Shown here piece after piece: positions 400-59,200 of a stretch of DNA of 64,000 bases; the first letter of the stretch is position 1, and each line of letters begins with the position of its first letter. The position numbers were made by a program, and so were the translations under genes. Source of the stretch: Aplysia californica (taxonomy: Eukaryota); NCBI RefSeq assembly GCF_000002075.1, contig NW_004797283.1, positions 1,021,581 to 1,085,580 on the forward strand. Reading direction: 5' to 3'. The notes under the pieces are model-generated. The model saw only the letters and a list, made by a program, of their open reading frames with translations, was not told the origin of the DNA and did not search any database.

Positions 400-970
400 A
401 CAGACTTTAGGAGTAAATCAAATTTTAACTGAAAAGTCCACATTGCTCTTAAATACAAGTATATAAACACGTATAAGTAAATCAGTTGTTTAAGTGAAAA
501 GCTCTCATTGCTCATATACGTAGGTTAAATACTTAAAAATTGAAAAGTCTACCTTGCTCCTAAATATGAATTTATGTAATTCAATTGTTTGAATATTGTA
601 AAATCCACATTGCTCCAAGGAAAAAAATAGTAATATGTAAATTAATTGTTTAAAACATTGTAAAATCCACTTTGCTCCTAAATAAACTATATTTACGCAA
701 AATAATTGTTTAGCTGAAAAGTGTACATTGCTCCTGCGTAAATTGATTGCTTAATTGAAAATGCCACATTGCTCCAAAATATAGATATATCATATAGGTG
801 CACACGTAGGCCTAAATCCATTGCTCAACTGAAAAGTTCACTTTGTTCCACATTCACATATTATTATAAAGACAGGCCTATACGTCAAAATTAATTATCT
901 AACTCGATAGTCAAAGTTGCTCCTAGATGTTGCCTAGTTATTATAAAGACGTAAATTAATTGTTTAACTA
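400..970. repeat. Degenerate minisatellite, about 55-65 bp unit
   Basis: AATTGTTTAA.TGAAAAGTCCACATTGCTCCTAAAT recurs about 9 times. Confidence 0.8.
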
Positions 971-32400: not shown

Positions 32401-35400
32401 ACAAGCCATTACTAGAGTTAGACAATAAACAAATCATTGCTAGAGTTAGACAGTAAACAAATCATTTCCACAGCTAAAAAATAAGCAGATCATTTCAACA
32501 GTGAGACAATGAACACACCATTGCTACAGCTAGACAATAAACAAATCATTTCAACAGTGAGACATTGAATAGATCATTGTTATAGAAATATCATTAACAT
32601 ATTTTTGCGACAGAAATGTTATAAACAGTTCATTGCTGCAGAAGTACATTAAACAAATCGTTGCCACAGAAATACAATAAACACATTATTTGATAGATAG
32701 ATTGTTTAATACTTACATATACAAATAGGTAGTGTGGACAATGTGCAATACACATGCCAACAAGCTCAATAGGTTTCATCTCTCTAGTCTCTTGTCTGAG
32801 AAGAGTTCTGGAATTCACTGGAGGGATAAGATACTGAAGTTCTTGAGAGGGCAAAAGCCTGTAGTATCTTCTGCCTCCAGGCAAAAATCCAGCTTAGATG
32901 GGCAAGGCGCTTGGTTTGAATGCCAAGCACCCCAAGCCATTTCCTACTCAGAACTGGTATGTGGAAAGACAGAACATTGGTGCCCGTAAAAAGAGACATA
33001 AAGACACTCTAAAGACCTCTCTGAAAGATTGCACCATCGATGTGAATGAGTGGGCAACCCTCTTTTGACAGATCACAGCGACATAAAACTATACCAATAT
33101 GGCAGCAAGGTTTTTAAACAAGAGTTTGTAAAGTAGAGGCAGCCAGAAAGGCAAGCAAATCAAGACAATCAAATCCTGACATTGACAAGTGCTCTGTTTG
33201 TGGAAAATTCTCAAAAAGAATAATGTTATAAGGTCACAAGCAAATTCATAGGAAGATTTAACCATCTATGTTTAGGTAGACAGGCATACCACTTTAAGAA
33301 AGAGAAAGGCAATGCTACCTATGGTGGCTTGTCACATCTGTGATTATTACCAGCTGCCTGCTATTATTTCCTTCACTTTTGTCTACAACTTGTCTTCCTC
33401 CTTGAGTATTAAAGCCTAATTAAAGGTCATCATCACTTCCTAATAGACAAACTATTGTTATAACTTTGTATGAATATGATTCCTCAGGTTTGCAGTGAAG
33501 CTCTGGACCTGTATGATTTGGCAGATACACAGGAAGTTCAGAAGTTCCTACTCAAAAAAATCATGGATGTACCAGATGAGAATTTAAGAGGTTGGTTGTA
33601 TTAAGTCTTTTCAGACATTGGTCTAGTCATTGAAGCTTATCCAACACCTAACTCCTGTGTGTCTGCATTTGGACCTAGTGTAGTTCTATGTTTTTGTTAA
33701 TTTGCTCAAGCTGTCACAGTTACGCACTTCTCCATTGTACACGAAAGAATGAATAACGAACTGCGTTCGTGGGCTAGTTGCTTGCATGTAAATGTCATAC
33801 CTGTCAGTAAGAGTAGTGAGGTGAATAGCTAGCCCTATGCAGTGCCTTTTCTGCTACAGTTAGAAATACTTCACATAATATGCGCAAGAGATGTCCCTTC
33901 ATAATGTAAATGCAATCCAAGTGTCTACAGATCATGAATATTTGTTTCTGATTTCCTGTCTTTCCCTTATCAAATTTGGACTTGTGAAATGTAGAAAGAT
34001 AATAAAATGCTAATTGTATATAGTTTCTTTATCAGACCATTTGATTTTTTGAGAATTAAAGAGAAGTCAAACTCATTCTGTTGATATGTAAGTGTACTTT
34101 ATAAGGTGTTGTGTGTTCACTGATTGAGAAGGGTAACTACTTGCCTGTGTTTTCCTTCCATTCTCAAGAGACTACAAATACTGGCTTGGGAGTGAGTAGA
34201 GCCTGACTTCACAGCAGTATGCTCCTAGTTAGTGACAATGCTGTGTGTATGATAGAATTTGGAATTTTAAGATGTTGACACTAAACCCTAATGGATCTTT
34301 TTAACAAGAAAACAAATTATATTATAGCACTATATCAGAGTAAAGAAGTGAGGAAGAATGCGAAACTGGTACACGAAAGTAAACAGCAGTCTTTTATTTC
34401 AGAGCAGCATATGATTGCATGCTATTTTTCCTTAAGAAGGGTTACACCACGAGATGATGTGCAGTGTTCCTTAATATTGCTGCAACTCAGCCATTGGATG
34501 ATGCAGGACTTTGAACTTACCATTTCCGTTACTTCAACTTTAGAATTATATATTATATAATATATCTCTTATATAATATCACTCTTATATCTGGTTTCGT
34601 TATCCATGAGATGAGAGCTCTCATAAGCTTACCTGTTTCTTAAAATTTAACAGAAACGTGTTATGTTTTGGGGGTTTTCTTTCAGAACTGCATGAATTTT
34701 TTAAGGTTAGCAAAAAGTTGAGGAAGCTTCATAATTTCTTTTGCACCTTGGATTTTTTTTCCTCTCATGCATGTTAGCATGAGTCCCTTTATATGTGTTC
34801 CAACACAGTGGAATCAAGTGTGTGTCAATTTTGGGCATATGGAGTTGTTGACATATTCTTAAACTTAAAGCCTGTTTACACATCTAATTGCCTCTACTCC
34901 TCAAGACAACAATTAGAACAAACATGCAACTATTACCGAATGGCATCATGCATAAGAGTTAACGCTCAGATGCTACTGGATAGCTAACAACAACAACAAC
35001 AACAACAACAAGCCTGTTTACTTGCCTTGCTTTTAATGAAAAAACACCTATCAGTCTTGAACAGAAGTTCCGATATTTGCAATTAAAGGAGGCAGGGGTC
35101 ACCTGGTGTCAGGTAAAATCAGAAAAAAAATGGCTGCCAAAGTTTTGTGACTTCTAAAGTTTGTCAGTTTGAGTTTGGAGACTGAAAATGTATGTTTTGT
35201 GTGTCTTTAATCAACATTTTTCCATAAATTCCACACAGAAATGTGTTTTTGAATAACCACACAAGGTGTTGGGCTACCCCCCCCCCCCCCAAAAAAAAAT
35301 GGTTTTAATATTGCCCAGGGGGTGGGAAAATGTTAGTTTCTAAGCTTTCATTATTTTGACGAGCACCTGATTTCACCACAGTGCCTCTTGTCCTGACTTT

Positions 35401-38400
35401 AGAATTGTTTTTGTATTACCTGTATTACCTGTCCTGGGCAACAACGTCATTGCACACCGGACAGGTCCATAAGTGCTCAGTTCCCCCCAGCACCAAAGTC
35501 CGCAAGGTGTCCATACTGATTGTTCCGGTGGCAGTCTGATTATGGGGACGTCTTTCCTTTCCAGATAATCGTTCCTTTCTTCCTTCTCCCCTCTCTTACA
35601 ATTGTTATTGTATACTATGTCATCAAAAGCACTATTTATTTTGTCACTGCTTGTTCACCCACTAGCTCATGGTTATGTCTTAGTGGATGGTTGGTGGAGG
35701 GCACCTCTGGTAGGTCTTACTCCTTTTCTATCCTTCTGTTATTTCTGTTATCTGTCTTACTTTTTCCAAAAACAAAAGTACCGTTATTGTGTTGATGTGC
35801 ATCTTTCAACAAACAAACGTTTATATCTGAAATTGTAACACAGGGTGATCAAAGCTGGTGGCTTCACCTAGTGACTTGCAGACAAACAATGAGTCTTTTT
35901 CACCAGCAGGAGGACTATGTTAAGCTAAATACCAACCGCTGGGTTTCACGCATAGAAGGCAGTTGTTAGATTTCCTAACTCACTTGGTTTCCTATTATGC
36001 TATGGCCACGGCTTGTCCTCTCAAGAAATACCGTACCATCGTAGAAATTCTTCTTGTGTTGACTTGTAAGTTGATGTTCTATCAAAGTAAGAGTCTTTCT
36101 AAACAATTTTTGTGTTAAGTTGAAAAACTCTTAAAATTCTTAAGATTATGACTCGTTTGACTAAACTACTTGATGAGCTGATTCCAAAACTGAAGTGGGT
36201 CTTCATACTTAGTCTTTCTTGCCTAGGTGGGAGATATTATTTTGTAGATGGTTTGCAGGTGCTCTAGTATGGTTTGCTCCTTTTTTCCTATCAAACAGCC
36301 ATCATCTTTATCTCTCCTCCTTTTTTGTGTTTGTTACTCGCTTATATATCACCTCTAATCTTTGGTATTTATATGACCTAATTGTGTTGCAAGTGGCATA
36401 AAACTCTTACTAAAACAAAAAAAACCAATGTCCTTTCTTTTATAATCATTTGTGCCTCTTTCGTTGTCCTATACGCAGGTCTTTCTGACAGGGAATGTTT
36501 GATCTGAGCTTAATCCAGTCTATCTTTATTCTCTCATGTTACCAAGAATTACCGGAGATGGATCCTGCCTCAGCTTCACCAAACAAAAATCTTCAAAACC
36601 TTGAGAAAGTTCTACAAGAACATTTGGTTGAAAAAAGTCAGTCTTCACGATGCATAATTTTTGTGTCCACCCGAGCTTTGGCAAAAGCTCTCACAGGCTG
36701 GATGAATAGGTTGAACCCATCTGTCCGTCATCTGAAGGCAGCTGTGTTTTCTGGGACTTCTGCTTCTAAAGACAAAGATGGTAAGATATTTGTTCGTTTT
36801 GTTTCCACTGAAATTTTAATCCTTTCTTGAAGCAGAAACAGTTGTCTGGATGGTTGAGTTGTCAATTTCTTTCTCATAAACTGCTGCTCTATTTATTTTA
36901 CATCCATAACCATTAGTTTGAAAAAGAATATCTACCTTGTTGTGTTTACAACACCTAAACAGGCATGATTCCTATAGATCTACAGTTGAGCCTGTCCAAA
37001 ATGACCACCCATGGGCAAGGAGAAAAATGGTCCTCTTGGTAAGTGTGAGTGGAAAAAAGTTGTCTTGGACAGATGGTCATTAGAGCAGGTTCGACTGTAT
37101 ATCTAAATCCCATGACAACATCCTCTGCTCGGGAAGAATTTGCATATACTCGTGTATATATATATAATATATATTGCCCCCCCCCCCCTTTTTTTTTGTT
37201 GAGAGGAGATGCTTTGGATCAAATACACTTTGTACAGTTTCTGGTTAAGTATCATTTGCTAATCTTCTTTCAGCTATAGCTTGTTCACTTTCGTCTCCAT
37301 GCTTCAAAAAATTCTAGCTAACTTATTAATTAACCTATGCCAATGACAGTTTGCATGACAGTTCTACAGATCAATGACCAAACGAAAATATGTGGGGGGG
37401 GGGGGGGGTTTATAGTGATCCAGTAATAAAAATGTTTCACTATTTGGACCCTACATGAAAAAACTTTGGATGCATGCACAGGATCACTAAAAGATCTACA
37501 GTACTTTACCCTACAAATTGCTCATTTTGAGATGGTGACACCTCCCTGCTCCCATATTTCAGTGAAAGCTTGTAGATATTGTACCACGACTGTCTGACTG
37601 TCTAGACGTCTCCATGTAAGTCTCTAAAAGTACTCACCCCGTCTGTTGGACCGTGTTTCATAGCTGTGCGTCAAAATGTGGTATTGATGAAAATTAAAAC
37701 TTTTTTGTGTTTTAAGTATGTGCTGTATTTCCCCTATTATTGTGTCAATCCGCGTTAGACTAGCATAAAAAAAACCGTTCCCCCCACTGACTGAAGTGTC
37801 TTTAGGCCATTCCCAAAGGAGGGACATTTCTCGTTCTTATAAAATGCACAGTATAATTGTAGATGGGCTGATTCAACAATGTCACGCTCCTAACTGTGCC
37901 TGAACTACAACGGGGAACTGCTGCTTTTTATTTCCTAATCCTTTCTGTCGTTATATTCCTTTAATTCTTTTGTATGTTTGTCACTCTCTTGTGACTCACT
38001 ATTTCCGAGATGCCTTGAAAGTCAAAACACACTTTGCGCTGTTGAAGCTAGAGAGGTGAGCAGAGTAAGCTGATTCCATGTAAAGACTTCTCTTTTGACA
38101 TCCCCGCTTGGCGCTCATATGACCTTATGCCGTCGCGAGCTCCGTAAAACCTCTACTAAATAAAAATGAATAAAAGAAAACGTGTTGGAACCTTAGTTTA
38201 CAGAGACCTTCATTAATTAGCTTTTAGGTTCTGTTGGTCATCCAACTTTTAGACCCACGTATGCAAAGACCTGAGAAAGATTAAATAAACAAAGATGATT
38301 TGTTTTTATCTATTTTAACCATGATTAGACGAAAGTGAACAAGCTATAGGATACTTTTTATCTTTACAGGCACAAGTAAGATTGAGCAGAACCTACTTCT

Positions 38401-41223: not shown

Positions 41224-44200
41224 GTTGTTGTAATTTGTAATTTAGAAGAGCAGGAAGTTAATGCATATTCCCAATCAGGTACAGGCTGTCAGTGCCTATG
41301 TGGTGCAGTCCTCCGTTGACAAAGGAGTTTTTAACAATGTTGTTGTTGTTGTTGTTGTTATCGATCCAGCAACAGCTGGGCTCTCGCCCTTCTGTCCAAT
41401 GCCATGTAGTGATAAGTGCAGGTCTGCTGCAGTTGCTGTAATGTTCCATAGAGTGTGTTGTCTATGTTAGGTCTCGGAGGGAGAAGGGTAGCTCTGATGT
41501 CATTTAGGGCTGTGCAGTGGAACAGGTGATGCTCCACAGTCTCATATGCATAGTCACACAAGGGACACATTGGGGGAAGTTCCGGGTTTATTCTGTTCAG
41601 GTGGAAGTTGAGCTGTATATGTTCTGTTCGTAGGCGGAAGATCGTGGTCTGTTTCTTTCTCTGAAGGCGTTTGATATTGTCATTCCTTTTTGTTGTAGTC
41701 ATATGTCTGAAAACTGCTCTGCCTGTCTTTCCCAGGGCCCATCTGTTCATCCAATCTTGTTTGTTGTTGCTTTTGATGATTTGTTTTGCAGTGTTGTATG
41801 AAGTTGGAGTGTTGGGTTGTTCCTGTCTAGATCCCCATTTGGCGAGTGTGTCTGCTCTGTCATTTCCAGGTATGTCTGAGTGTCCGGGAACCCACTGCAT
41901 TACTAGGTTGATGCCACAGAATGTTATCAGATGATGGGATCCAAACAGTATATGGGTCAAATCTTGGTTTAGATAATGGTCATTTTCTATGGCTTGTAAT
42001 ACTGATAGTGAGTCAGTGAAAATCACAATACTCTGTGCTTTTCCAGGATGAGTGTCAAAAACTGTGCGGAGATGGTACAGCGCTGTTTCAATTGCCATCA
42101 TTTCTGCATCGTAGTTGCTGCATTTCTCTCCGCAGGCTGCAGAGATCTCATTGGAACTTCCATCTGGGTACTGTATTAGTATTCCATATCCGGCCTTGGT
42201 TGTGCCTTTGAATGCTGAGCCGTCCGTATAGACGTGTATCCAGTCATCTGAATAGCTGTCGATTGTTTGATGTGATGCAAGCATCAGCGTCACTGGGTCT
42301 GAAGATTTTGTGCTCTTGTCTTTGAGAGATGTTGTAATGATTGGCTTTTTTAAAGAAAGGTGGGGAGGGATGTTTTGGTTGACTCTTTTGGTTTCTTTTC
42401 TGTTTTGTGGTAGATGGTGACTCTCCATTAGTTCTGTGATGTGATGCATGATTGACTTTTGTTGAATTCGTTTCTTTGGTTTCCATGTTTCTACTAATTT
42501 CCTGTTTGGGTGGTTGAGGCACATTCTTTTAGTTCTTTCATGTAGCTCCAAAACTGCTCTATCTCTGCGGATTCCCAGGGGTTCAACATTTGCAAGGATT
42601 TCGCACGCAGCGGTAGGTGTGGATCTCATGCCGCCATTTATAAAACGAAGGGCATTGTTTTGGACCTTGTCAAGGGTGTTGCAAGTAGTTGTACTGCACA
42701 TTGTGAGTAGGCTATTGCTGTATTCCAGGGAAGATCGGACATAACCCAGGTATAGAGCTCTCAGAGTTTGTTTGTCTGATCCCCATGAACTGCTTGCGAG
42801 TTTCTTTAAAAGTTGGAGTCTTTTTTTAGCCTTGTTCCTTATGTTCTCCACTTGGCTTTTCATGGTTAGCCTATGGTCAAGTTTGATTCCTAGGTAAGTT
42901 GGATGTTCTTCTTTGGGGAGACTTTCATTTCCTATCTTTAGTTTGAGATTTTCTTTGGCTGCTTTATGGCTCTTCGTGAAGATGGTGTATACTGTTTTCG
43001 TGCAGTTTATTTTAAGTTTCCATTTCTGACAGTAATTATGGAGCCTCTTGAGGTCTTCATTTAATTTCCCTGCTCCTACTATCGTGCTGTGATGTGTCTG
43101 CCAGAGAGCAAGATCATCGGCATAAAGCGTCTTTTCTGATTTCAGCACGTTCGTTACATCATTAAAGAAGATCAGGAACAAAGTGCAACTCAGACAGGAA
43201 CCTTGAGGTAGGCCTTCCTCGAGTACTTCTCTTGACGAGTGGGCATTGTTTACCTTGGTTTCAATGTTTCGATCCGACAGAAAGAACTTGATCCATTTGT
43301 AAAGTTTGCCATGTATCCCGAGGTCCATCAATTTCATGAGTAGGCCTTTTCTCCACACTCTGTCGTACGCCTGTTGGAGATCTACAAAGATGGCGACGGT
43401 GTGTTTACTCTCCTGAAATCCATCCTGGATGTTTTGACTCAGTTTAAAAAGTTGATCTTCTGTGTTGCTGCCTTTTCTGAAGCCTGCTTGGTGTGGGTTT
43501 AAGCTGTTAGTATTTTCCAGGTACCAGTAGAGGCGGTTGTTTATCATTCTTTCCGCAAGCTTACCGATACATGATGTTAATGAGATGGGTCGGTAGCTTT
43601 TCGCTTCTCCAGGTGGTTTTCCATTTTTCAGGAGTGGTGTAATCTGGGCGATCCTCCATGCCTTTGGTATTCCACTCGTTCTCCACGTGGTGTTTATCAG
43701 GGAAAGGAGAACTTCTTTTCCTTTAGCACCAAGGTGGCACAGCATTTCGTTGTGTATTTTATCTGGTCCTGGGGCTTTCTTTTCCCTTAGCTTTTTGAGG
43801 GCCTGACTGAGTCCCACCATGCTATAATCCTCTTCAAAAAGCGAGTTGTTCACAGTAGGAGCTTTTTCTTTATGCTTAGCCCTATTTATGAGAAGTCTAT
43901 CAGCCTCGATTAGTCTGCCTGCCCTGTTTACAGAGGCGAAAAAACGGTTGAAATGTTCGGCTTTCTTCTGGTCTTCAGTGATGGTGCTGCCTGAAAGGAA
44001 AAAGGGTTTGGGGTTGCTTTTTTGTCTTTCTCCCGAGAGGTTGCTGACAAGGGACCAAGCCTTTGTTCCATTGTGGCAGAGGTCGAGATCTTTGCAGGTT
44101 TGAGTCCATTTCTCTTTTTTGGGTTTTTTTACTGTCACTTTCACCTGAGCGCAGGTTTTGTTGTAGTGTATTTTGTTTATTGTTGATGGTGATTTTTCCA

Positions 44201-47200
44201 ATGACTGTCTGGCTTTCTCTCTTTCTGCCACAGCAGTTTGGATTTCTTCACTCCAAAAGGGTTTGAAATTTCTTCGGCATCCCCGTGGAATGTGCTGAGA
44301 TGCAGCTTTCAGAATATTTTCGGTGACCTGTTCATTAAAAAGATCAGCATCTTCTGTTTCTTCTATGCTGGAGAGCAATTCGTCTGAGGTCTTTTCGTAT
44401 TCTGCCCAGTTGGCTTTCTTAAAGTTCCATCGAGTTCTCCGAGGGTGGTTCAATGCAGGTGGGGAGGTGATCTGTATAAAGATAGGCCTGTGATCACTTC
44501 CTATGTCATCAATCACTTCGATGCGACAGGAGTTTTTAATGTCGGATGAGCAGATGGTGAGATCAGGCCGGCTGAGAGTCAAGTGGGCTATGTGAAGTAA
44601 GGTAGGAGTTGAGTTGACATCTTGTAATACAGATAGGTTGCTGGTTTCGCACAGCTCCTCAATCTTTCGGCCTGTGCCGTTATAGTTGACGTAGCCACAT
44701 TCTGGAGAGTGACCATTGAAGTCACCCGCACAAATGGTTTTTTCGTAGCTGGCTGCTTGCAGATCAGACAAGTCGCATGTTGTCTGTGGGGGGCTGTAAA
44801 CATTATAAAGTGTGTACTTCCTACCAATGTGCCATATGGTGGCCTTCTGGATATCTGTCGGTTGGGCAGATGATAAGTGTACAACATCTCCCAGTACATC
44901 GTTTCGCAGGTAAGTGACTACACCGCGGCATCCTGTGCATGTGCAGGCATAACTGGTGTATCTTGTGAGGTTCAGGTCCGTACCTTTGTGTAGGGTTTCT
45001 TGAAGGAGGGCAACATGAATCTGTCTGTCCTTCAGTACTTTGAGGAGTTCTGTTTTCTTGTTCCTCAAACCACAGATGTTGAGTTGCAAGAGGTTGAGGG
45101 AACTCTTCTTCTGGTTGGGGATGTAGTTTGCTCCCTTCTCACGCCGAGAGATTTTCGGTGCTGGTTTAGCACTGTTTCTGTGTGTATCACCAGTAGCTGA
45201 CTTGTCGCTCAGAGCAGCCTGATGATTGCGCTGCCTGGCGCGGACCTTGTTTAACGAGGCGACGCCCGAGCTCGCATGTAATTTATTTCTTTGTGTCATG
45301 GCATTGTGGAGTGGGGTGTTTGTGGACTGTCTGCCCACCCTGAAAAGGGGCCATTCATGTTGAGGATAGGAGGGTACTAAGAGTTTTCAAGAGACTGGAA
45401 AGACCTAACTGCCCTGTGACCGTGTAATTCCGGTAGGGTTCACGTTGCCCATTCCCCGCCACCAATGGCTACTGGCTAAGGTTTTCGACTCTTTCATGAG
45501 GTATTGGCCAAGTGGGGAAGCCATTGGATCGTCACGTCCTGGGTCGTTGTGCCTTTACTAAGAGGTTTCACGGCCAGAAAGCAAGTCAGGCATTCTGCTC
45601 GGTCCATCCCCTGCACCCAGACACTCTCAAACTGGCTGGTACCTTCTCAACCACAGAGGGTGTGTTGATAAAAGTAGTAGAGGTGTTAGGCAGATTAGAC
45701 ACCCACTCAAGGGAGAGTAGGAGCGTGTTAGTGAGGAGCATAGCGTCTACCACGCATCGGTGGGTTCTGCCTCCTGCACCTTGTGGGGCCACACCTGCTC
45801 CCATCCTGTTGTTTTAACCCCTCTAGGAAACGGGGGGGTTGGTTTGTTGGCGCCAACAACTCGCCATTCGCCAGAGCCGTGTCAGTGAGGACAGGGACCA
45901 CCAGGGGCAGGTACGGTTGGCTGGATTGGGAGAAGCTGTTTGAGACGCTTAGGCATTTCTCAATATTTAAATGAGACCCATCACCAGTCCTTGATCCCCA
46001 ATGTCACATCACCGTGGAATCAGTATGACTATAAGCAAGGGACAGGGAACTATGTTCTCATCTACTTCCCTCAAATACATTTCTGTTATTTAGTATATCT
46101 TTTCTGCACTCTTGAGGATCATAGTGGAACAGTCCCTGGAGTGGAACTCCCAGTTGATCATCAACTTTCTTGACTATGAGAAGGCCTTTGACAGCATGGA
46201 CCGAGCTGCACTGTGGAAGATACTGAGACATCATGGAATCCCACAGAAGTTGGTTAACCTCATCAGGAGCATGTGCGAAGGGACAAGTTGCAAGGTTATA
46301 CATGATGGCCAGCTCACTGACAGCTTTGACATCAAGACCGGTTTGAGACAGGGATGTTTACTATCACCGTTCCTCTTTGTCTTGGCAATTGACTGGCTAA
46401 TGAAGGAAACCACCAGAGGACACAGAAACGATATACAGTGGACCTCATGCACACAGTTGGACAATCTGGACTTTGCAGATGACTTGGCGCTTCTGTCACA
46501 CACTCAGGAACAGATGCAAGCAAAGACAACAATTTTAAACAGCCTATCAGAGTCTGTTGGATTGAGGATCCACCTGGAAAGTCAAAAGTCCTAAGGATAG
46601 ATGCACTACAAAAGGAGCAGGTCATAGTACAAGGAAATGCACTAGAAGACGTCGAATCCTTCTGCTATCTTGGGAGTATAATTGACAGAGAGGGAGGAAC
46701 AGGCGCTGAAATAAAGTCCCGCATTGGAAAGGCACAGACTGCATTTATTTCTTTGAACAGGATTTGGAGGACCAGGGATATCTCACTACGAACAAAGCTT
46801 AGAATTTTCAACTCAAATATGAAGTCAGTCTTGTTGTATGGATGTGAGACATGGAACGCATCCCAGACATGCATAAAGAGGATCCAGGTTTTCTTAAACA
46901 AGTGTCTGAGGAAGCTACTGAGAATCAAATGGACAGACAGGATCACCAATGAGGAAGTATTAAGAAGAACAAGACAGAGGCCTGTCGGAGATGAGGTGGA
47001 AAGAAGACATTGGCAATGGATTGGACACACTTTCAGGAAGTCAAGCAGCTGCGTGACAAGGAAATGAAAGTGTTAGATTGGAACCCTCAGGGCAAAAGCT
47101 CAAGGGGAAGACCACATGGAACCTGGAAAAAAGTCGCGGAAATGGATGTACAGAAAAGTGGGAAGATGTGGAGTGACATCAAGCGACTAGCCCAGGATAG

Positions 47201-50200
47201 TGAAAGGTGAAAAGTGTTTGATCGGGGCCTATATCCTGATCCAGGGGGAGAGAGGCAATGATGATGATGATGATGAATGGATGAAAGTAATTTCTTCACA
47301 TAGAGGTTATAGAATATACAACTAACCTGAAAGCAGTAATTATAAACTGTTTTTGTTAATATATCTGTAAAACTGACTTTTTCTTGACAGTTTATTGAAC
47401 TTTTTTTTCTAGGAAGGAAGGGTTCTGTATAATTTTGAGCCAAAAATACTTTTCTGCAAGAGGAGATGATGTTACATTTGATATGATAAGCATAATAAGT
47501 AAATTTAGAATCTTTTTCATATGTTTTCTTTTTAATACAGGGGAAAAGATGAGTAGGTATTAAGTGAAACTTTGTTGAAAAGAGGGCTTATGTCTTTTTA
47601 GTTTTTGTAAGAGTTTTACAGCACTTACAATACAACAAGGTCATACTAGTGCTGAAGATTAGATGTGTTACAAGAGAGTAACAAACACAAAAAAGGAGGA
47701 GTGAGAAAGACAATTGATGTTTGATAGGAAAGAAGGAGCAAACCACACCAGAGCACCCTCCAACCACCCTCAAGCTTATGTATAGAATTAATAGTTTTGC
47801 ATAAAATAGATTTTTGGGTGGATTAGTGGATGAAAGTTTTGTTTCCACTTGGGTGAGTACATTCTGTCTGTATTGTTTAGTAGGATACTGAAGAGCAGTC
47901 ATGACAGAGACAGCATTCAAATGTCTTAAAGGCTGTTCCTTATTTGCTTCTCATGCATTCATTGATATATGAATTTTCACTTGATTTGTTTCTAAGCAGA
48001 ACTGAATGTACCCTAACCAAGAATTACTAAGTTCTATCTGCTCAGTACCTAGTTTTGAGAAATTTGACTTTGAAAATTTCGAGTTTCACGACATGTCAAG
48101 CTTTTTCGTGTGCAATTCTTTGAATATCTTGATAATGACTCTGAATAATCTTACAATTTTGATAGAGCAGAAAGAACGTTTGGTTTCTGACCTCATGATC
48201 TTAATAACTCAAAACGGCCAATAATGTCAGATAGAACTTTGTAATTCTAGAATTGCGTACACTCCTAGTGCTAATCAAAAGGGAGACATCTTCTTCAAGA
48301 CTTTGGGTTTGTTTTTTTAGGGCGCTGTCGACAGTTCAATGGAGTGTCTGTGTTGATGGCAATGCCTGAAGATAGACCGCGGGACTACTTGAACAGAGAA
48401 AAGGCTGTCTTGATGAACAATGCCTTAAAAGACATAGGGCAAAAAAGACAAGAATTTGAGAGGAAGGTGAAGCAGTTCATTGAAATGGAGCTGGAACCTG
48501 ATATAAAGGCTTTGAGCAGCACAAGCGATGTGACTCAAGTACCTGAAAGAATTCTTGAGTTTGTAAGCTCCTTTTCTGCTTCTAATTTTGTGTTTTTCAC
48601 CTTCTCCTCTTACTATTCTTACTACCTGTCCTTCTCCATCTCTCCTCTTTCTTCTTATTTTCACTTTTTCTGCTTTCTTGTGCTACTTCCTACTTGAACC
48701 TCTTCTGCATTCCCTTGCATAGTCTCAGGTGTTGATAGCTCTGTTTTAGTAAGCGTTTTCTGACACTTTTAACACAATGTGGTCATATACAGTGGAACTT
48801 GGATTCAGTGAAAGCTTGGATTCAACGAAAGGAGATGGATTCCTCCTTTGTATTTATGCATTAAAATCAATGAAAATAACTTGGGATTCAATGAACAAAT
48901 AGAATCTATAAGTGAACAAGCTCGGATTCAACAAAGTCGCTTGCAAGGGGAATAGCCCCGCTGATGAGGCTTCGCTCATTTTTCTCTCGCAACAAACTCG
49001 ATCCTGGAAACCATCCATGGTGTCTGCATCATGAACCATTATTCACTTATCGTATTGTTTATATCTTGTGTGACCAAACAGCGGNNNNNNNNNNNNNNNN
49101 NNNNNNNNNNNNNNNNNNNNNNNNNNNNNNNNNNNNNNNNNNNNNNNNNNNNNNNNNNNNNNNNNNNNNNNNNNNNNNNNNNNNNNNNNNNNNNNNNNNN
49201 NNNNNNNNNNNNNNNNNNNNNNNNNNNNNNNNNNNNNNNNNNAGGGGAGGGGGCGCAAGCGGTTCTGGCGTGGAAGGTCAGTAATCAATCAGTAGAGATG
49301 CAAATGCATCACAGTACTCGCAGTCATTTTTCCCCCAGGCTACTGATCAATATTACAGTGATAAGCTAGTCCCTTGACATAGAATCTAGATCTACATAAT
49401 GAATTGTGCACTGGTCTGTGGACTCAAAGATTGCTGTGCGCAAGGCTCTACACAGCAACGCAATTTGTTCAGCAAATAATACGTTATAGATGACAGATGA
49501 CACATGTGTGCTTTGGAACTAATTGGACCTTTGGCACAGCATTTGCTTATTAAATTAGAGTTCAGTGTATTTTCCTAGAGTTTTCCAGCATTTCTTCGGT
49601 CTGACATCGAAGAAACAAAAATGCCTCTCATTTGACACCAAACTGATTTTGACCAAGGAAGTTAACTATATATACCCAGCAGCCTTAGAGACTTTCCACT
49701 TTGTTTTTTGTAACTGCGCCCTTGTTCACGTGAGTTAGTGAGTAAAATTTTGCACATCACTCATCGTGTATCCAACGATTACTCCTTACGGATCTTTTTC
49801 TTGAACAAAAATTTAACCATGTGGTCACGTAGCCCACATGTGAATTAACATGTTTTGTGACTCATGTTCCGACAAAATTATGAAATCATCTAAATTGTGT
49901 TTAGATCAACACATTAGCAATTTTAGAACCAGAAAAGCAAATTACATACACATTCAAGCTGGTTTGTGTTGACTTAAATTGCTGTACAAACTGCCAAGGT
50001 TAAGCCCCGAGGAGCGCTGTTGGGTAATTTGAGTACGCCAAGCTATACTATCAGCCCGCAGAGTGGTGTGGATGCTTCATTGCTCCCATCCTACCATCAA
50101 TATACTTCTGAAAGATAATTTCCAAGTCACTGTAGTTTCACCTGACAGACCCAGACCAGGCAGACCACAGGTTGATACTGCCCAAGAAGACAGGTTGATA

Positions 50201-53200
50201 CTGCACTGGCATCTTCGAGATGGCTCTCTCACAACAACCAGCTCTGGACATCAATTTCATACAGACATTGTGAGTGCCGTAAAACTCTTACGAAAAAAAG
50301 ACTTTGGAAGAGTTAACTGCGAAAGAAGGATACAACAGCGTTAGAACACATTCAGACATCGAGTAAGGGGGCCCTATAATGACCAACGTTTGCCATCTTT
50401 CCAAGAATTACGCCTAAATTGACTGGGCAAATCGTTACATTCGTGAGGGATGCAGTTCTCTTCTCGGAGAGTTTCAAGCCATAAAGTTAAAGAGAGAGAG
50501 ACCAGCGGATTGCTGCATGCATGAAATAGACAGATGGGGTGGTGGTAGTGTGATGATGTGGGACTGAATATCTTCCAACCACAGAACCTAGCCACACATT
50601 TTCAACCTTACGGTCGATGCCAACGAGTACCAGAATGTTCTCCTGATGTACTTGGTTCCCTTCTTTCAAACCCATAGACGTATGTACACATTTCAGCAAG
50701 ACAATGCACGCTCACACAGTGCATGTGTAAAGGTGCAAATATAATATACAGCAGTAAAATGTGAATGTTTTGCCATTGCTGGCGTACTCACAACACGAGT
50801 CACCCTGTGGGCCTAAAAGTGAGCTCCCAAAACAACATTAACATTGTACAATGGCTCGGACAAGCATTGATTCAAGAATGGAATGGACTGCCACAACCAT
50901 CAATTTAAAAAAGAAGAAAAAACTGACTCGATCTATTCACAGAACTTACCAAGCTTTCATCATTGCAAGGGGCGACAGTAGGCCTACCTGCTACTGATGT
51001 GAAATTTTGAAATCAAGGGGTACCAGTTTATGCTTAATACTGTGCCATCATATGAGACATGATCAAGAAACAAAAGGTAATACACTTCTTGACATACTTT
51101 GAACTATGTCTGTGTCGATTTTTGTTTTTATAAGTTGAATAGTAAGCACAATACAGGCTTCTCTCCAAATGGAAAGTTTGTATTGCCGCTGTGTATTCTA
51201 TACATTAATTGTTCAATGCCTGTAATTATCTACACAAAAACCTCATGTTTGCCACAACAAACATTCGTATTTTATGAAATTGAATTTCAGGCCCGGCGAC
51301 TTCGTTGAATCCAAGTTCCATTGTATGTGCCAAAGACTAGAGATGTTACAAGAGGGTAACAAAAACAAAGGAGTATAGATAAGGACTCTATGGATGTTTG
51401 ATAGGAAAGGAGGCACAAACCACACCAGAGCACCCACCAACCATCCAGGTTGATACCCACCTTTGATGTTTTCAACGTCTTGTGACAATCTTTTTTTTCT
51501 TCTTGTTAATATGTTGGTAAGGAGGAGAAGGATAAATTTTAGAGAATAGATAGTTTTGTCTTGTCTTTAGTTAGAAGTACAGGTTGACTCTCAGTAGAAA
51601 ACTTACAAAGAGTATTAGATCCACTAGGTGACAATCATTTAGTGATGATATTATTATACAGCCTTACAAAGAGCAGTACACCCACTTAATAGGAGTTTTC
51701 AACTTCATTTTGTGTTTCAGAAGTGCAAAATCTGCCACCGACTTGCAGTCAAGAGCTGTGATCTCAGATTGATTCACAAGATGCACAGAGTTGTAGTAAA
51801 TGGGTAAGATGGTATAATTGTCCTTTCAAGTGAAATAACAACAGAAAAATACTTTCTCAAGGTTTCCTCATAGCATAGGCATCATGCAGTAGATAGAATA
51901 ATTAATCATAATACTGAAATAGATCATTTCTTGTGACCTCAGGCTGTGCAATATTGTTCTGGATTTTTTAAAAATAGTTTTATAAAAAATACTGCACTCG
52001 CATCTCATATAATCAATGCAGTGGTAGTGATGTTGAAGGAAAATGGTTTAGGACTTCATCAAATGTACAGTGTTTAAGCAGAATTTTAAACTGGAAGTGT
52101 TTGAAACAGGGGTACAATTTTCTGTGGTTAATTGGTTATATTCTAGGAACTTGACGTCTGTTCAGGTCACATATGGAAAAGGGCTTTTTGCATAGATGTG
52201 GGGGGGGTTTCCCCAGTTTAAGGTAAAGATGTCATTTTTGCTAATTGGTCTTTTTTTTTATCTTGCGTTTTTGCCTAATGACTTGGGTTCTAAAGCATTC
52301 AGTGCACAGGGTACCAAAGCAAAAATAGTATCTGAACAATTTTGTTTCCACTCTTTGTCTCTCCTGAGAAAAGCAGAGTAAAACAGTGAAGGAATATTTT
52401 AGACTGCCTTTCCATATTTCATAAACCGAAATTCACAGGAAAAATTATTCTAGATGATGACAAAATAGTCTGTTACATGTATTGCATGGACAGTGTCTTA
52501 ACTCTTTTTATCCGGGCTACGAGTATACTGGTAACAAGGACTAGACCGGGCTTCGAGTAAACTGCTTGTGATTACCAAAATATACAAATATGGTGATGCT
52601 CTGTCTGAATATTTCAGTTTTCCAGTGAACAGTGGTTTCTATGTTTTTGATGGGCGTAGAAGCTAGAAAAATGTCTCTAAAACGCACTTTCAAGACCGTC
52701 GAAGTACTTCAAGAAGTGGTGCTGTGTTATGAGGGGGGAATTAGACTAATTCAATGAAAGTGACTCTGAATCAAGTGCCGTAAATTCCGTTGTGGATGAT
52801 AATGAACAGGAATTAGACTCATCTAATAGTGATTCAGATCATGGTGAAGGGGTCAGTACTGGAATTTGTGCAGTACCGATGGGTAGGGGTAGATTTGTAA
52901 ATCAAGGGGACTTCGTGGGCATGGCAATCAGGGTCAAATTGGAAGGTGGAATACACCGCAAAGTCTACATGTGCAATTGGTGTAATTCCTAACCACATAC
53001 ATTTTGTTGTTGTTGTTGTTGTTGTTAGCGATCCAGTAGCATCTGAGCGTTAACTCTTCTGCATGATGCCATTCGGTAATAGTTGCATGTTTGTTCTAAT
53101 TGTTGTCTTGAGGAGTAGAGGCAATTTGATGTGTGGGATAGCTTGTGAAGAAAACATCCCCTTTAATCAGTTAGTTTTCTACAGAAGAACAGATGATGTT

Positions 53201-56200
53201 CTACTGTCTCTGAGGGGTAGTCACATAGTGGGCAGGCAGCAGACTGCTTTACTCCAATTCGGTTGAGATGTTGGTTGAGGGGTAAATGTTGTGTTATAAG
53301 TTGGAAGATTATGGATTGATCTACCCTCCTCAACTCATTGATTGGATCTTTGACCAGTGGTTTATTCATGTGGCCATACATCCTCCTTCCTGTCGTACCT
53401 GTGGCCCAATCATTCATCCACTCTTCCTTGAGGTTTGACTTGATCATTTGGCAGCAGGTGGTGTAATTCGTAGGAATTTCAGGCTGAGGGAGGCTAGCTC
53501 CTTTCTTTGCCAGAGCATCAGCTCTTTCATTTCCCGGTATCCCAGTGTGGGCAGGAATCCATTGAAGGACTACTCTGACGTGGTGCCTACTTATCAAGTT
53601 ATGTAGACTCCAAATCAAATGCAATATATCTTTGTTCACATCAGTCCCACTCTCAAGTGTCTCTAGTGTTGAAAGGCTGTCTGTAAATATAACGATGTCA
53701 GTGGTAGCAAGTGGGTTAGTGTCAAACAAGTAGTTGATGTAGTTTGCTGTGTTGGTGATAGCCTGTTGTTCGGCAATGAAATTGGAGCAGACGGACCCGC
53801 TGGAGTTGAAGACTTCTTTTTTTTATCCCACTGGGCAAGTTGATCACTGACCCATATCCAGCATTGATTGTTGCCTTAAAGGCAGATCCATCAGTGTATG
53901 AGTGGATCCATGTTGGTGGATAGGAATCAATTGTTTCAAGGGCAGAATGTTTATTACTACAGGATATGTGTTTTTATTGCTCTTGTCCAAAAGTGTTTTC
54001 CTAATTTCTGGCTTTGCTATGGTGAAATGTGGTGGGAGAGTTGAGGGAACTCTTTCCAGAGGTTCTCGTCTTTCAGGGAGGTGATGTTTTTCTTGGAGAT
54101 TGAGAACGGTGTCAAGTACAGATTTTGTATTTTTTAGTCTTTGATTAGGTTTCCACTTGTCAACAAGGACTCTGTTAGGGTGGTTATTTTCTAGCCTTTT
54201 AGATCTTTCATATACTTCTAAAGCTGCCTGTTTTCTTCGAGTTTCTAATGGCTCAATATTTGTGTGGATTTCACAGGCCGCAGTCGGTGAGGATCTCATT
54301 CCGCCAGAGATAAGACGAAGAGCTTGGTTTTGGATGGTGTCCATTGAGTTCTTTGAAGTTTTACTGCAAATGTTTTGTAGAACAAGATTATAATCAAAAA
54401 CAGCTCTGGTATATCCCAAATAGAGGCCTCTCAAGGTGTTCTTGTCTGATCCCCAGTTGGTACTGGCAAGTCGTTTGATGAGATTAAGTCTCTTCATAGC
54501 CTTCTTCCTAAGGTTGTTGGTGTGTTGTTTCAGGTTGAGCTTGCTGTCAAGTTGTACTCCAAGATACACTGGGTTATTCTCCTTTTTCAAGTTGGTACCA
54601 TCTATTTTGAGAGGGATTTCTGCATTTGCAAGGTTATAGCTTCTCGTAAAAACAGAGTAGACAGTTTTTTCGCAATTTACTTTCATCTTCCATAAACGGC
54701 AATAGGTTCCAAGGGAATTTAGATCATCTTGTAGTCTTCGTCTGCTTATTGTTGTCGAGTTTCCAGTGTGCCAAAGGACCAGGTCATCAGCAAAAAGGGC
54801 TTTTTCTGTTTTGAGAACATCTGAAACATCATTGAGGAAGACAAGGAATAAGGTACAGCTGATAGAAGATCCCTGTGGGAGTCCTTCCTCCAGTACTGCT
54901 TTTAAAGATAGGGTTTCATCCATCTGGGTCTGGATAAGTCTATCTGTAAGGAATGATTTAATCCAGGAGTACATGTTTCCCTTGATTCCATGTTCTGCAG
55001 TTATAAGAGTAGTCCTTTCCTCCACACTCTATCGTAGGCTTGTTGGAGATCCACAAACACAGCCGTTGTCTGTTCCCCTCTTTGAAATCCATCAATGATT
55101 TTCTGTGTGAGCCTGAAGAGCTGGTCTACTGTCCTGCCTTTTGACCTGAACCCTGCTTGACACTATGATATCAGACCTGAAGACTCAAGCCACCAATAAA
55201 GACGAGAATTGAGGATTCTTTCACAGAGCTTGCCAATACAGGACGTAAGTGATATTGGGCGGTAGTTTTTAGGGTCCTTGGCCTTCTTTCCTTTCTGTAA
55301 GATTGGGTTTATAGTAGCTAGTTTCCATGCTTTAGGCAGATTTCCCTCGGTCCATGTTCTGTTGTAGAGCTTAAGAAGTAGCAATTTGGCTTTTTCACCA
55401 AGGTTTTGTAGCATCTCGTTGTGTACTTTGTCAGGACCTGGGCTTCTTCGCTTCTTTAGTTTCTTGATTGCACAGTCCAACTCTCGCTTAGTTAATTAAG
55501 AAGTCCTGGAAGATACTCGGTGTCATCAAATCTCTCTCTCTTTTCATTTCAGAACACTCTGTAGACCCCTGTCCAGGTCATTCCTTTTGCTGCTCTTGTT
55601 AATGGGGGCAAAATGTTTATTGAAGTGTTCGGCTTTTTTTAACTCGCTGGTGAGAACTTCGGTTTCTGTGTGTAGTGGTTTGGGGTTTTCTTTCCTTTTT
55701 TCGCCAGTGAGGTTATTTAGAAGTGACCAAGCTTCAAGTCCACCTTGATGTAAATTGAGTCCCTCACAATTCTGCGTCCAGGCTTCCTTCTTAGATTCCT
55801 TGGTAACAAGTTTAGCCTCTGCTACGGCCTTTTTGTATCTAATTTTCTTGTCCATATTTTTTAGATCTTTCTCATATTCGTGTCTGGCATCATTTTTAGT
55901 TTTTGTAGCTTTCTCCAAGCGCTCGTTCCAAAAGGGTTTATAGTTGGTTCTGCACCCCTGTGGGATGCTCTTCTTCGCAGCATCTAAGATGGTGGAGGTG
56001 AGTTCACTATTAAGGGCGTCTATACTTTTATTGTCTAGATCATCCAGCTTAACGGTGTCCTCANNNNNNNNNNNNNNNNNNNNNNNNNNNNNNNNNNNNN
56101 NNNNNNNNNNNNNNNNNNNNNNNNNNNNNNNNNNNNNNNNNNNNNNNNNNNNNNNNNNNNNNNNNNNNNNNNNNNNNNNNNNNNNNNNNNNNNCTCATTT

Positions 56201-59200
56201 TGAAGAAGGATGAGGTTAGAGGACTGACATAGTTCTTCAATCTTCTTACCTGTGTTGTTTTGGTCAGCATAGCCCCAAAGGGGGGAGTGTCCATTAAGGT
56301 CACCAGCTATGACCGTCTTCTTAAAGATAGTACTCTGTTCCATGAAGTTCAGAATGCTACTTGGGGAACAATAGATGTTATAAAGTATGAGCTTGCTGTT
56401 GCCATACCACAGGGTGACTTAATGTGCCTCTGTGGGGTGCCAGTTAAGGAGCTCTACTTCACCCTGGATGCCATTTCTGATATAGGTTATAATCCCTTGG
56501 CAACCTTCACATTTACATGGATAAGGGGTATACCTAGTGATGTTTATGTCACAGGATGAATGGAGAGTTTCCTGTAATAGAGCAATGTGGACTTTCCTTT
56601 CATACAAAATTTTCCCCAATTGTGTTTTCTTCTTGTCCCAGCCACAGACATTTGCCTGAAGAATATTGAAGTCTATAAGCTTCTCTTTTCCGTTACCAGT
56701 TGTAGGGGGTGTTTTCTTCTTGTTTTTTTCCATTTTCTCTGCTTTCTGATTTTCTTTTTCTTCCAATAACCATCCACCAGGCCAGCTTGGTTGCCCACTA
56801 AGACCTGGGGGGAGACCTTGATTACCGAGGCGGCGTCTCAGCTCGTATGGGATTCTATCATTTGTGAATAGCATCTAAAACTGGTGGTTCTGTGATTTTC
56901 CTTCCATCCCGGGGTAGGAGATAAAGCAGTGGCTGTAGGTGCAATGCCACAAACAAAAACCCAACTCCATCACAGAGAGATTGTAAGAAAAATGAATGGG
57001 TATGTTGGTGTCTGTTGTATTATATTGAGAAGTTGTTTGAGGAGATAAAGAAGAGAAAGACGCTATTAAGAGCATAGTTGCTGTGTGTTGCTGAAATACA
57101 AAAATTATAATATAATAATAATAATACTAATAGTAATAATTNNNNNNNNNNNNNNNNNNNNNNNNNNNNNNNNNNNNNNNNNNNNNNNNNNNNNNNNNNN
57201 NNNNNNNNNNNNNNNNNNNNNNNNNNNNNNNNNNNNNNNNNGGGCTAATGTTGTCAACAAGCAAGACGCAAATGGTCTCTGCACCTTCTCCGCAGTCATA
57301 GGGCTCTCCGATAAGTGCATGCTTAATACATGTATGGAGCTGGGTATTCCCTACGTAAAGTCACATCCAGTACAGTGCTGACAATGAACCTCTGCTTTCT
57401 ACCCCACCAATACCCGTCCCAACTCCAGGTCAAAGAAAGGTTGTCGGTGGAGAGAGGAGAAAAGAAAAGCTAATAAATGTAATAAAGTAAAACAATAAAG
57501 ACAATAAATAGAAAGAGTAAGAAACATAGTAAAGTAATATGTCTCTTTTCGGGGTCACCCCTTGACCCGTTAGCTTCCTCTTTTTCTTTTCCTATTCGAA
57601 GAGCACTTATCCCCCCCACCACGAAGAGGTGGGTCTATTTGGGGGGGACCACATACATTTTCAGATACTACATTCAATTTCTAACATAACTGCCATATTT
57701 CCTTAAAATCTAAGAGTAAATATTAGAAATACAGCACTTTGAAATATACACACTGAATTGTAAATCATATGGTGCAGCGAACCCAGGACGGGTACAGAGT
57801 CCATGGGGGTATGGCCTGGATAAAAAGAGTTAAGCTTTCCAAAAAGCAAACAGTATAGTCATTGTTTTTGTGGTACTGGAATCATTGACGAGTGTTAGGC
57901 AATTTTTAAAAAGAAATTCAACACAACCGTATTTATTTTCAAGACCATCAAATTGACAGATGACTTTGAAACTTTGAGAATTATATTTTCTCCCCAAGCT
58001 TAGAATCAGTACAATTTTGGTACAAAAACTTTAAAACATTTGTATGAACTTTAAATGTGATGAATTTAAAAGATTGTCATTGTCATTGTCAAATAGAGAA
58101 TGGTCAAAGTGTTAAAAAGCATATGTGAAGTGAAGAGTCCTGACGGTTTGGTCCACTAGGTACACATTTCATAATTTGGGTTTTAGGCAGAGAATGAGAG
58201 ATGCAGAGAGGACATAATTCCCCTTCATATGACACCAATATCAAATGAATACAATAATATTTAAGAGAATGAAGCACGATTCAGTACTGGAATGCTCCCC
58301 TGCTGTCCGGGTCATAATACTGAGTTATTTGCTATCAAAGATTTGACAAATGTCTCCATAGCAACAGAAATCTTCTAATAATGCTGGGTTCATTAAATTT
58401 GGCACGCATGTTAAATGTTTCAATGCCAATATACTCACCAATTTTCAAAGCATTTGCTTTAATAGTTTTGTTTTTCAGAGTGTTTTCTCAAGGGCACCGG
58501 AACTTAAACAAAACAATTTTTTTTTAAAGACGGAAGAAGAGCTAACATAAAGAGCTGTAATTACTCATGCTTCTAAATGTCAGTACTTGAACAGACATTG
58601 AAAGATATAATAAACACAAATGAAATATACAGGATATACAACAGTAGGACCAACTTCTATGGTGCAATAGTTTGGCTCTTCATCTATCATGCAGAGAGCA
58701 GGAGTTTGAGTCAAGGCCAACATGGAGCAAATTTTTAATCAAGCATGTTTTGTCTCTCTGCTAGGATTTAGCCTAAAGTCCCTCTCAGCCCAGATTGGCC
58801 CTGACAGGCAGATACAAAGTATCCCGCCTCTTAAATTACCTTACAGTGTTTCCAGGTGTAAAAACCAAAAATCAAGAAATCTAGGACAACATTTGGGAAC
58901 TTTATTTATAAGGCCCCAAAACATTTGCCTTGACTGCACAGAACCCGGCGTCTGTGGTGCTATGATAAGGCTCTTTGCCTATCATGCAGAGGGCTCTAGT
59001 TTGATTCCCATGATGGTATGAGCATTTGTGTTTTTCTGCTGGGATTCTTCCCTCTTGGCCCAAGTAGCCCTGACAGGCAGGGTTGAAGTAACCCATCTCT
59101 TAAATGGTCACTTTTAAGCACAAAGGGGCTATCCCGAAAAATGCTGTTTTGAGAAAATCGAAGGTAATGTTTTTGCTCCTTGTTCGGTTTCTTAAAAAGA

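Follow-up and report, generated by a model that had tools for sequence, protein, structure and literature searches.

Introduction

Ribozymes resembling that of hepatitis delta virus (HDV) are already known on Ingi long interspersed elements (LINEs), as is a tandem duplicate of such a module, SIDER2 (PMC3185411, PMC4035085). In this study, we analyzed 64,000 nucleotides (nt) of Aplysia californica DNA (assembly GCF_000002075.1, contig NW_004797283.1, positions 1,021,581 to 1,085,580, forward strand), hereafter the window, whose coordinates are used throughout. The window carries an intact Ingi-like LINE on its minus strand, and two interlocked HDV-like cores, termed Rz1 and Rz2, are predicted in the 5' untranslated region (UTR) of this element. 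In the reading that we regard as fairly probable, copies of the LINE start at 45999, where Rz1 would likely cut, and Rz2, with its site 50 nt inward, is probably a weakened duplicate interlocked with Rz1.

The closest described systems share parts of this arrangement. L1TcRz/Pr77 of the trypanosomatid L1Tc/ingi elements (PMC3185411, PMC4035085) is likewise an HDV-like fold at the first base of a LINE with AP endonuclease (APE), reverse transcriptase (RT) and RNase H, with a 3-bp P3, a 1-2-bp P1.1 and flanking target-site duplications; it is one compact 77-nt ribozyme with a P4, whereas the Aplysia LINE, in an animal host, has two predicted cores that together span 312 nt, of which the first probably lacks P4 and has a J1/2 of 68 nt. 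In SIDER2 of Leishmania and T. brucei, an ingi-related element, the ribozyme-like module at the 5' end is likewise duplicated; the first copy is active in vitro, the second has a misfolded P3/P1.1, and mRNA cleavage is reported at the start of signature II (PMC4035085). SIDER2 is described there as non-autonomous with its signatures in tandem, whereas the Aplysia LINE is autonomous and its P1 helices cross. In silkmoth R2, J1/2 is 216-498 nt long and P4 is dispensable, and 5' extensions or alternative P1 strands are modeled to move the cleavage site; the R2 described there has one core with alternative P1 5' strands derived from 28S duplications (PMC3774820), whereas the Aplysia LINE has two complete cores that do not share a P1. 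In the minimal P4-less HDV-like and theta ribozymes, as in the register preferred for Rz1, a short loop stands ahead of the catalytic C in place of P4, but those reported are short, derived from phages or metagenomes and often found beside tRNAs (PMC10879173), whereas Rz1 has a long J1/2 and lies in an animal LINE. Finally, in ribozymes of the drz-Agam-2-1 type, a structured J1/2 can join P1 and P2 and speed cleavage, and the cited sections describe no second catalytic core (PMC4908430). By analogy, bringing P1 and P2 together would be a sufficient role for the J1/2 of Rz1.

Within the literature searched, which left most subscription journals outside it, we found no LINE described as having two interlocked cores of the HDV type. 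Paired ribozymes in the lancelet are said to have been described by Webb et al. in 2009, which our search did not confirm.

Results and Discussion

Copies of the Ingi-like LINE start at 45999

The features of the element are as follows.

41339..45999, minus strand: full-length Ingi-like LINE copy of 4,661 bp, delimited by loose ends of copies and a depth drop in 4/4 runs, by its open reading frame (ORF) and by its tail
41358..45299, minus strand: single ORF of 1,313 amino acids counted from the first Met, with the frame open from 45386, supported by profile matches
41339..41359, minus strand: (AAC)7 tail, immediately 3' of the stop codon
46000..46004, minus strand: possible target-site duplication ACATT, 5 nt and weak, with its repeat at 41340-41336 overlapping the tail

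The ORF encodes an AP endonuclease, RT, RNase H and a C-terminal zinc-binding motif. The profiles PF14529, PF00078 and PF00075 all scored above their cut-offs, and PF13966 scored 25.2 bits, under its cut-off of 27.5. The intact LINE thus has the single ORF with APE, RT and RNase H that marks the Ingi clade; Vingi elements are described as being without RNase H (PMC13708176). A 2A-like NPGP motif near the N-terminus has been reported for trypanosomatid Ingi and for an Aplysia Ingi (PMC3708506). A scan for NPG in all sense frames of this LINE and of its sister in the window gave zero occurrences, and the element is therefore named only Ingi-like. Among the 120 homologues listed, the relatives named by organism came from Littorina saxatilis and Elysia marginata. 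Relatives of the LINE protein were also encoded on six prokaryotic genome-bin contigs (L079-L084), which are likely host DNA carried into the bins.

To locate the 5' end, contigs and reads from four of the 24 listed runs (X12, X13, X14 and X24) were aligned to 45230-46129; contig depth in these alignments is not copy number, and 24 of 255 loose-end rows and 40 of 84 variant rows were examined. Loose ends lay behind 45999 for 13 (X13), 12 (X14) and 2 (X12) contigs and 14 RNA reads (X24), and behind 46000 for 8, 6 and 1 contigs and 20 RNA reads, respectively. Depth was sustained across 45950-45999 (21,603 in X13 and 4,999 in X14 before the drop) and past the 45980-46009 bin fell to 0 in X13, X12 and X24 and to 14.9 in X14; the flanks beyond the boundary were unrelated, with an agreement of just 0.44-0.59 (X13/X14). 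Because copies run past 45949 and end at 45999/46000 with unrelated flanks, the first base of the element is 45999. An earlier note on this DNA had placed the 5' end at 45949 and expected homology among copies to stop there; homology instead extends 50 nt further in 4/4 runs, and the element measures 4,661 bp from 45999 to the last tail base at 41339 rather than 4611 bp. The similarity in length to the sister element (4642 bp), which that note had adduced, carries no weight, as the sister holds two N gaps (56064-56193 and 57142-57241). No loose ends at 45949/45950 were present among the 24 rows shown of 255, and a minor subfamily starting at 45949 may exist.

A search over 45386-47500 revealed no target-site duplication of at least 8 nt for the intact copy; those of the two other elements in the window are 12-13 nt long. 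The intact copy differs from most copies at, for example, 45265, 45311, 45320, 45650, 45722, 45724 and, within Rz1, 45904, and these private substitutions indicate an aged copy despite the open ORF. Several run contigs skip 100-290 nt of the 5' UTR, which suggests internally deleted copies, and in single X13/X14 contigs the Rz1 core (45834-45911; 39 other letters) or most of Rz2 (45700-45794) is missing or replaced. Additionally, an RTE-like LINE fragment (RT, DUF6451) that is 5'-truncated and frameshifted and has a GAT-repeat end lies on the plus strand at about 46090-47275, head to head with the intact LINE and ~90 bp from its true 5' end.

A predicted ribozyme, Rz1, begins at the first base

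The core at the very end of the element had been overlooked. Its predicted parts are listed here from the 5' end.

45993..45999, minus strand: P1 5' strand GGGGAUC, with predicted cleavage just 5' of G45999, the first base of the element
45925..45992, minus strand: J1/2, 68 nt, structured in predicted folds, holding the P1 5' strand of Rz2
45913..45924, minus strand: P2 5' strand (CCAG, CCAA bulge, CCGU), which abuts P3; duplex of -10.5 kcal/mol with 45880-45868
45900..45912, minus strand: P3 (ACC/GGU) and L3, UGCCCCU in this copy, with a family G at position 25 (45904)
45893..45899, minus strand: P1 3' strand GGUCCCU, with a G1·U wobble at the cleavage site
45881..45892, minus strand: P1.1 (C45907-G45892, G45908·U45891), a 5-nt loop replacing P4, and J4/2 CUGAC; the candidate catalytic base is C45885, or alternatively C45870
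45871..45880, minus strand: P2 3' strand (ACGG, CU, CUGG)

The order of these strands is the nested one of P1, P2, P3, P1', P1.1, J4/2 and P2'. P1 comprises 7 bp including 2 G·U pairs and starts at the first base of the element; GGUCCCU finds just one partner inside the element, GGGGAUC at 45999-45993, and one more at 46137 in the flank. P2 meets P3 with a gap of 0, as CCGU/ACGG stands on ACC/GGU and is extended by CCAG/CUGG. The motif ACC-N4-C[GC]T-GGT occurs three times on both strands of the window, each time within the 5' UTR of one of the two LINEs. In its preferred register, Rz1 agrees with the CUAAC spacing of the sister ribozyme and with the Rfam RF02682 consensus, and the listed natural variants at 45888-45890 fall in the loop. 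Rz1 is probably without P4; P4-less ribozymes are known among the minimal HDV-like ribozymes (PMC10879173) and in silkmoth R2 (PMC3774820).

The family base at 45904, read on the element strand, is G in 20,164/20,620 (X13), 3,152/3,187 (X14) and 103.5/103.5 (X12) of the depth and in 23/23 RNA reads, and U20·G25 in the 7-nt L3 is found in ~98% of copy depth. Our search descriptor for HDV-like folds had been relaxed so as to admit Rz2, the core flagged in the earlier note (any base at position 20, at most 4 nt between P2 and P3); it finds the Rz1 core, with P1 at 45999, once the family G is placed at 45904. The genomic copy itself has a private G25C, and U20/C25 is not among the four active mutants of the antigenomic HDV ribozyme reported in the cited sections (PMC3386971), so Rz1 of this copy is probably dead. 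On the strength of its sequence features, we predict Rz1 to be the terminal ribozyme of the LINE.

Rz2 departs from the family in two places

The strands of Rz2 lie on the minus strand where the earlier note had located them: P1 AGCGTCT (45949-45943) with AGACGCT (45748-45742), P2 AGGCAGA (45772-45766) with TCTGCCT (45694-45688), CCCACC (45764-45759), CGTGGT (45754-45749) and CTAA (45698-45695). Their nested pseudoknot order was also confirmed, and J1/2 (45942-45773) is 170 nt long. The predicted parts are the following.

45943..45949, minus strand: P1 5' strand AGCGUCU, inside the J1/2 of Rz1, for the most part predicted to form a local hairpin with 45960-45953
45762..45772, minus strand: P2 5' strand AGGCAGA and the non-canonical 4-nt spacer ACCC
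45749..45761, minus strand: P3 (ACC/GGU) and L3 GAUGCGU, with G at position 20
45742..45748, minus strand: P1 3' strand AGACGCU
45699..45741, minus strand: P1.1 partners A45741 and U45740 (with U45756 and A45757) and the P4 region, including a 13-mer common to Rz1
45688..45698, minus strand: J4/2 CUAA (candidate catalytic C45698) and P2 3' strand UCUGCCU

The earlier note was right that Rz2 has an HDV-like architecture, and this architecture exceeds chance. On both strands of the window, the relaxed descriptor matched only the Rz2 core (45761) and the sister ribozyme (57630); in dinucleotide shuffles of the 701-nt 5' UTR, any match arose in 8/3,000 and one as good as Rz2 in 0/3,000. When the upstream stretch was shuffled 5,000 times, a perfect partner for AGACGCT appeared in 0.5% of cases (6.8% if 2 G·U were allowed), and decoy catalytic bases A, G and U gave zero matches at the Rz2 core. 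Rz2 contains P1, P1.1, P2, P3 and P4 in nested order, with the catalytic-C position of J4/2 directly before P2' (C45698 in CUAA, retained in the variant CAAA), and P2 has pair probabilities of 0.88-1.0 in the predicted ensemble. Single-strand folding of 45949-45680 gave z -0.53, with 60/200 shuffles equally stable, a measure that is uninformative for pseudoknots.

Rz2 has G20/G25 in L3 in place of U20·G25, its P2 and P3 are separated by the ACCC spacer (or L3 has 11 nt in the other register), and its cleavage site lies 50 nt inside the 5' ends of copies. Rz2 is, on these sequence features, the weaker candidate when set beside Rz1, as it deviates from the family both at U20 and where P2 joins P3. 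Rz2 and the sister ribozyme had been said to be built around the same core, but in the sister the P2 5' strand, stacked on P3, includes the CCC, and L3 reads UCUUCGU, whereas in Rz2 the ACCC is an unpaired spacer and L3 is GAUGCGU. Nor does their comparison amount to natural covariation, since the families are just 47-48% identical in protein and their 5' UTRs give no blastn-short match; they are better described as two examples of one fold. The long J1/2 of Rz2 stands at 170 nt, and long J1/2 segments are known in R2, but it is not an unexplained insertion, as about half of it (45924-45871) is the catalytic core of Rz1, the better-formed of the two; no role as promoter or in translation need be invoked to account for it.

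In the antigenomic HDV ribozyme, G at position 20 (G20/G25) slows cleavage 470-fold and leaves a slow activity of 16% in 2 h (PMC3386971). A competing hairpin beats the P3 fold of Rz2 by 7 kcal/mol when the pseudoknot helices are left out. Given G20, the 4-nt spacer and this hairpin, we lean towards a slow or vestigial Rz2, and we think a maintained second cutter unlikely. Among natural variants, G45691A breaks the middle of the Rz2 P2 (depth 155/225 in X12, 844/12,031 in X13 and 231/1,753 in X14), with no compensating change at its partner among the 40 of 84 variant rows shown. C45947U in P1 leaves a U·G pair, but, being a CpG transition, does not point to selection. In X12, the contig spanning 45754-45944 carries one difference that is absent from the listed variants.

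Two other registers were examined and rejected: Rz2 with the CUAA at 45731, which would be homologous to Rz1 but has no P2 abutting P3, and a circularly permuted fold with the CUAA at 45952, whose strand order, judged by eye, does not fit. The J1/2 of Rz1 (45992-45943, minus strand) has a UCUCA/UGAGA hairpin followed by CUAA at 45952-45949, which resembles a P4-J4/2 module and is possibly a third, more decayed relic, or chance; the C of this CUAA is changed at one transcribed locus (24/46 reads).

The two cores interlock and may be duplicates

The P1 helices of the two cores cross: the P1 5' strand of Rz2 lies within the J1/2 of Rz1, and the core of Rz1 lies within the J1/2 of Rz2. Following P1.1, a 13-mer, CCUCACU(G/A)ACACG, has 12/13 bases common to Rz1 (45890-45878) and Rz2 (45736-45724), a match found in 0/5,000 shuffles. 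This shared stretch suggests that Rz1 and Rz2 are duplicates of one core. At the 22-38 pair of P1.1, Rz1 has C-G, and Rz2 and the sister both have U-A. Transcription would complete Rz1 at nt 129 and Rz2 at nt 312; in predicted folds of nt 1-132, the P1 strand of Rz2 is mostly in local pairs.

The sister LINE shows the same terminal logic

A second LINE family in the window provides an independent case in which P1 abuts the target-site duplication.

57647-53006, minus strand: sister LINE with a frameshifted ORF, two N gaps and a 13-nt target-site duplication (57660-57648 and 53004-52992)
57564..57647, minus strand: its single ribozyme, with P4, whose P1 begins exactly after the target-site duplication

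The sister ribozyme matched Rfam RF02682 with 30.4 bits and an E-value of 2.5e-4, below the gathering score of 44, and is the sole HDV-type Rfam match; at the gathering threshold, Rfam gave no match in the window. Over 57370-57302, the sister UTR shares 85% identity with the beginning of a metagenome locus (L002), and a 3' stub of the sister family lies on the plus strand at 34878-35011 (97.7% identical over 131 bp, AAC tail, 12-nt target-site duplication).

We compared 97 related loci (78 metagenome, 6 genome-contig and 13 viral), which are 22-49% identical and mostly without 5' UTR. The descriptor, with minus-strand matches retained only if they had U20, printed four weak matches and no double core among them. 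A motif scan of 10 selected loci gave one candidate, L029, a metagenome contig in which an HDV-like fold, read by eye at 574-755 (plus strand), precedes the ORF of a distant RNase H LINE by ~1.8 kb. This fold has P3 ACC/GGU, L3 GCCUCGU (G20), GG for P1.1, a long P4, CUAA, an 8-bp P2, a ~100-nt J1/2 and a 6-bp P1 with an A·C first pair. An 18-nt pattern from the element's 5' end gave 32 prokaryotic matches, which were taken as chance.

RNA reads and competing explanations

Copies end at 45999/46000, and the first 7 bases complement the strand after the ACC-L3-GGU core, the first pair being G·U and U20/G25 nearly universal. From this we propose that Rz1 frees the RNA of the element from longer host transcripts. 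Finished first, at 129 rather than 312 nt, when the P1 5' strand of Rz2 would already sit in the predicted J1/2 hairpin, Rz1 would also cut first and fix the 5' end that reverse transcription copies. Duplication of one core would have given Rz1 and Rz2; an active first copy followed by a misfolded second has a precedent in Leishmania SIDER2 (PMC4035085). Efficient cutting by Rz2 would cost the first 50 nt at each transposition; its damping by G20, spacer and hairpin would let them survive every round, and its P2/P4 stems may remain as 5' UTR structure. In this particular copy, Rz1 would probably be dead through G25C.

Several observations weigh against this proposal. The raw poly(A) reads of X24 comprise 89 reads, nearly all on the plus strand, which is sense RNA in most stranded libraries. 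No pile-up of RNA ends occurs among them, although short reads from a poly(A) library test cleavage poorly, and 34 reads from two flanks pass 45999/46000 uncut; for both cores, the RNA reads show read-through rather than cut ends. The catalytic C of Rz1 is ambiguous between C45885 (CUGA) and C45870 (CGAA), with P2 duplexes of -10.5 and -10.6, and ViennaRNA, which is incapable of pseudoknots, gives near-zero probability for P1 of either core. Rfam searched over 45650-46020 with E up to 10 gave 5 matches, none to an HDV-type or ribozyme family. The 13-mer had already been seen to match when its test was chosen, and a further 12/13 match lies elsewhere in the window (+11974). Against a vestigial Rz2 in particular, its P1 and P2 have each kept 7 bp without a mismatch, no variants are listed in 45887-45725 among the 40/84 rows shown, a 7-bp P2 after C-N-R-A arises in 33/20,000 shuffles, and the otherwise clean fold of L029 carries G20, which may thus be tolerated in nature.

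These last points would suit a LINE in which both cores work, a fast Rz1 at 45999 and a maintained slow Rz2 that removes the first 50 nt to give a second RNA class, translated or degraded and not copied. Rz2 also has a 2-bp A-U P1.1, a P4 and the C-U-A-A, the listed variants mostly spare it (U·G after C45947U, the C kept in CAAA), and G20/G25 retains slow activity. We nevertheless consider this improbable: no end at 45949 appears in the DNA or RNA rows shown, G45691A disrupts P2 with no partner change in those rows (44 more lie outside them), C45947U is a CpG transition, and the spacer and competing hairpin remain. Equally doubtful is its elaboration as a two-step timer, in which a fast P4-less Rz1 would release the RNA at base 1 and a slow Rz2 (G20, offset P2) would later clip 50 nt and dismantle Rz1, sorting a template class from a translated or destroyed class. 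The likeness of Rz2 to HDV could also be accidental, its P2 simply closing two hairpins of an ordinary structured UTR domain. The minimum-energy fold, which has P2 and two local hairpins but no P3, agrees with this, as do the missing U20 and P2/P3 continuity, the absent Rfam match and a descriptor loosened after the candidate had been seen. However, the 0/3,000 shuffles as good, the empty decoy searches, the 13-mer common to Rz1 and the mere four weak matches printed for 97 loci, with minus-strand matches retained only if they had U20, make such an accident quite improbable.

Alternatively, an internal promoter might set the 5' end at 45999, with Rz1 also a relic and neither core cutting. Uncut read-through RNA at two loci without an end pile-up would fit, L1Tc Pr77 is both promoter and ribozyme, and several well-folded SIDER candidates are inactive (PMC4035085). 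We judge this very unlikely, as P1 of Rz1 begins on the very first base with a G·U pair, U20/G25 is near-fixed and the sister shows the same coincidence; moreover, promoter and ribozyme are not mutually exclusive. Hardly any likelihood is left to the model of the earlier note, a terminal Rz2 starting at 45949 in which the 170-nt J1/2 would be an insertion serving as promoter or translation element. Its helices are present and significant, but the copies reaching 50 nt beyond 45949 refute it for the bulk of the family, a target-site duplication at 45949 is absent, and the supposed insertion contains the Rz1 core.

Other features of the window

32041-32690: 28-bp minisatellite array
29087-29266, 36247-36425, 47592-47769, 13692-13854, 18476-18656 and 51324-51455: copies of a dispersed ~175-bp repeat resembling a short interspersed element or a miniature inverted-repeat transposable element, 70-85% identical and in both orientations
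24598-25170, plus strand: open frame that may be left over from a DNA transposon; it matches HTH_38 weakly, at 25.1 bits, under the cut-off

Significance

The annotation of this LINE is corrected to a true 5' end at 45999 with the predicted terminal ribozyme Rz1. With it, an animal LINE joins the carriers of predicted P4-less ribozymes. The locus puts the U20·G25 rule to the test through two natural departures, G20 in Rz2 and C25 in the Rz1 of this copy. It would also represent a snapshot of a retrotransposon swapping or shifting its 5' ribozyme by duplication, a process modeled for R2 from single cores (PMC3774820). If Rz2 cuts as well, one short RNA would make the division of uncapped LINE RNA between translation and reverse transcription directly testable.

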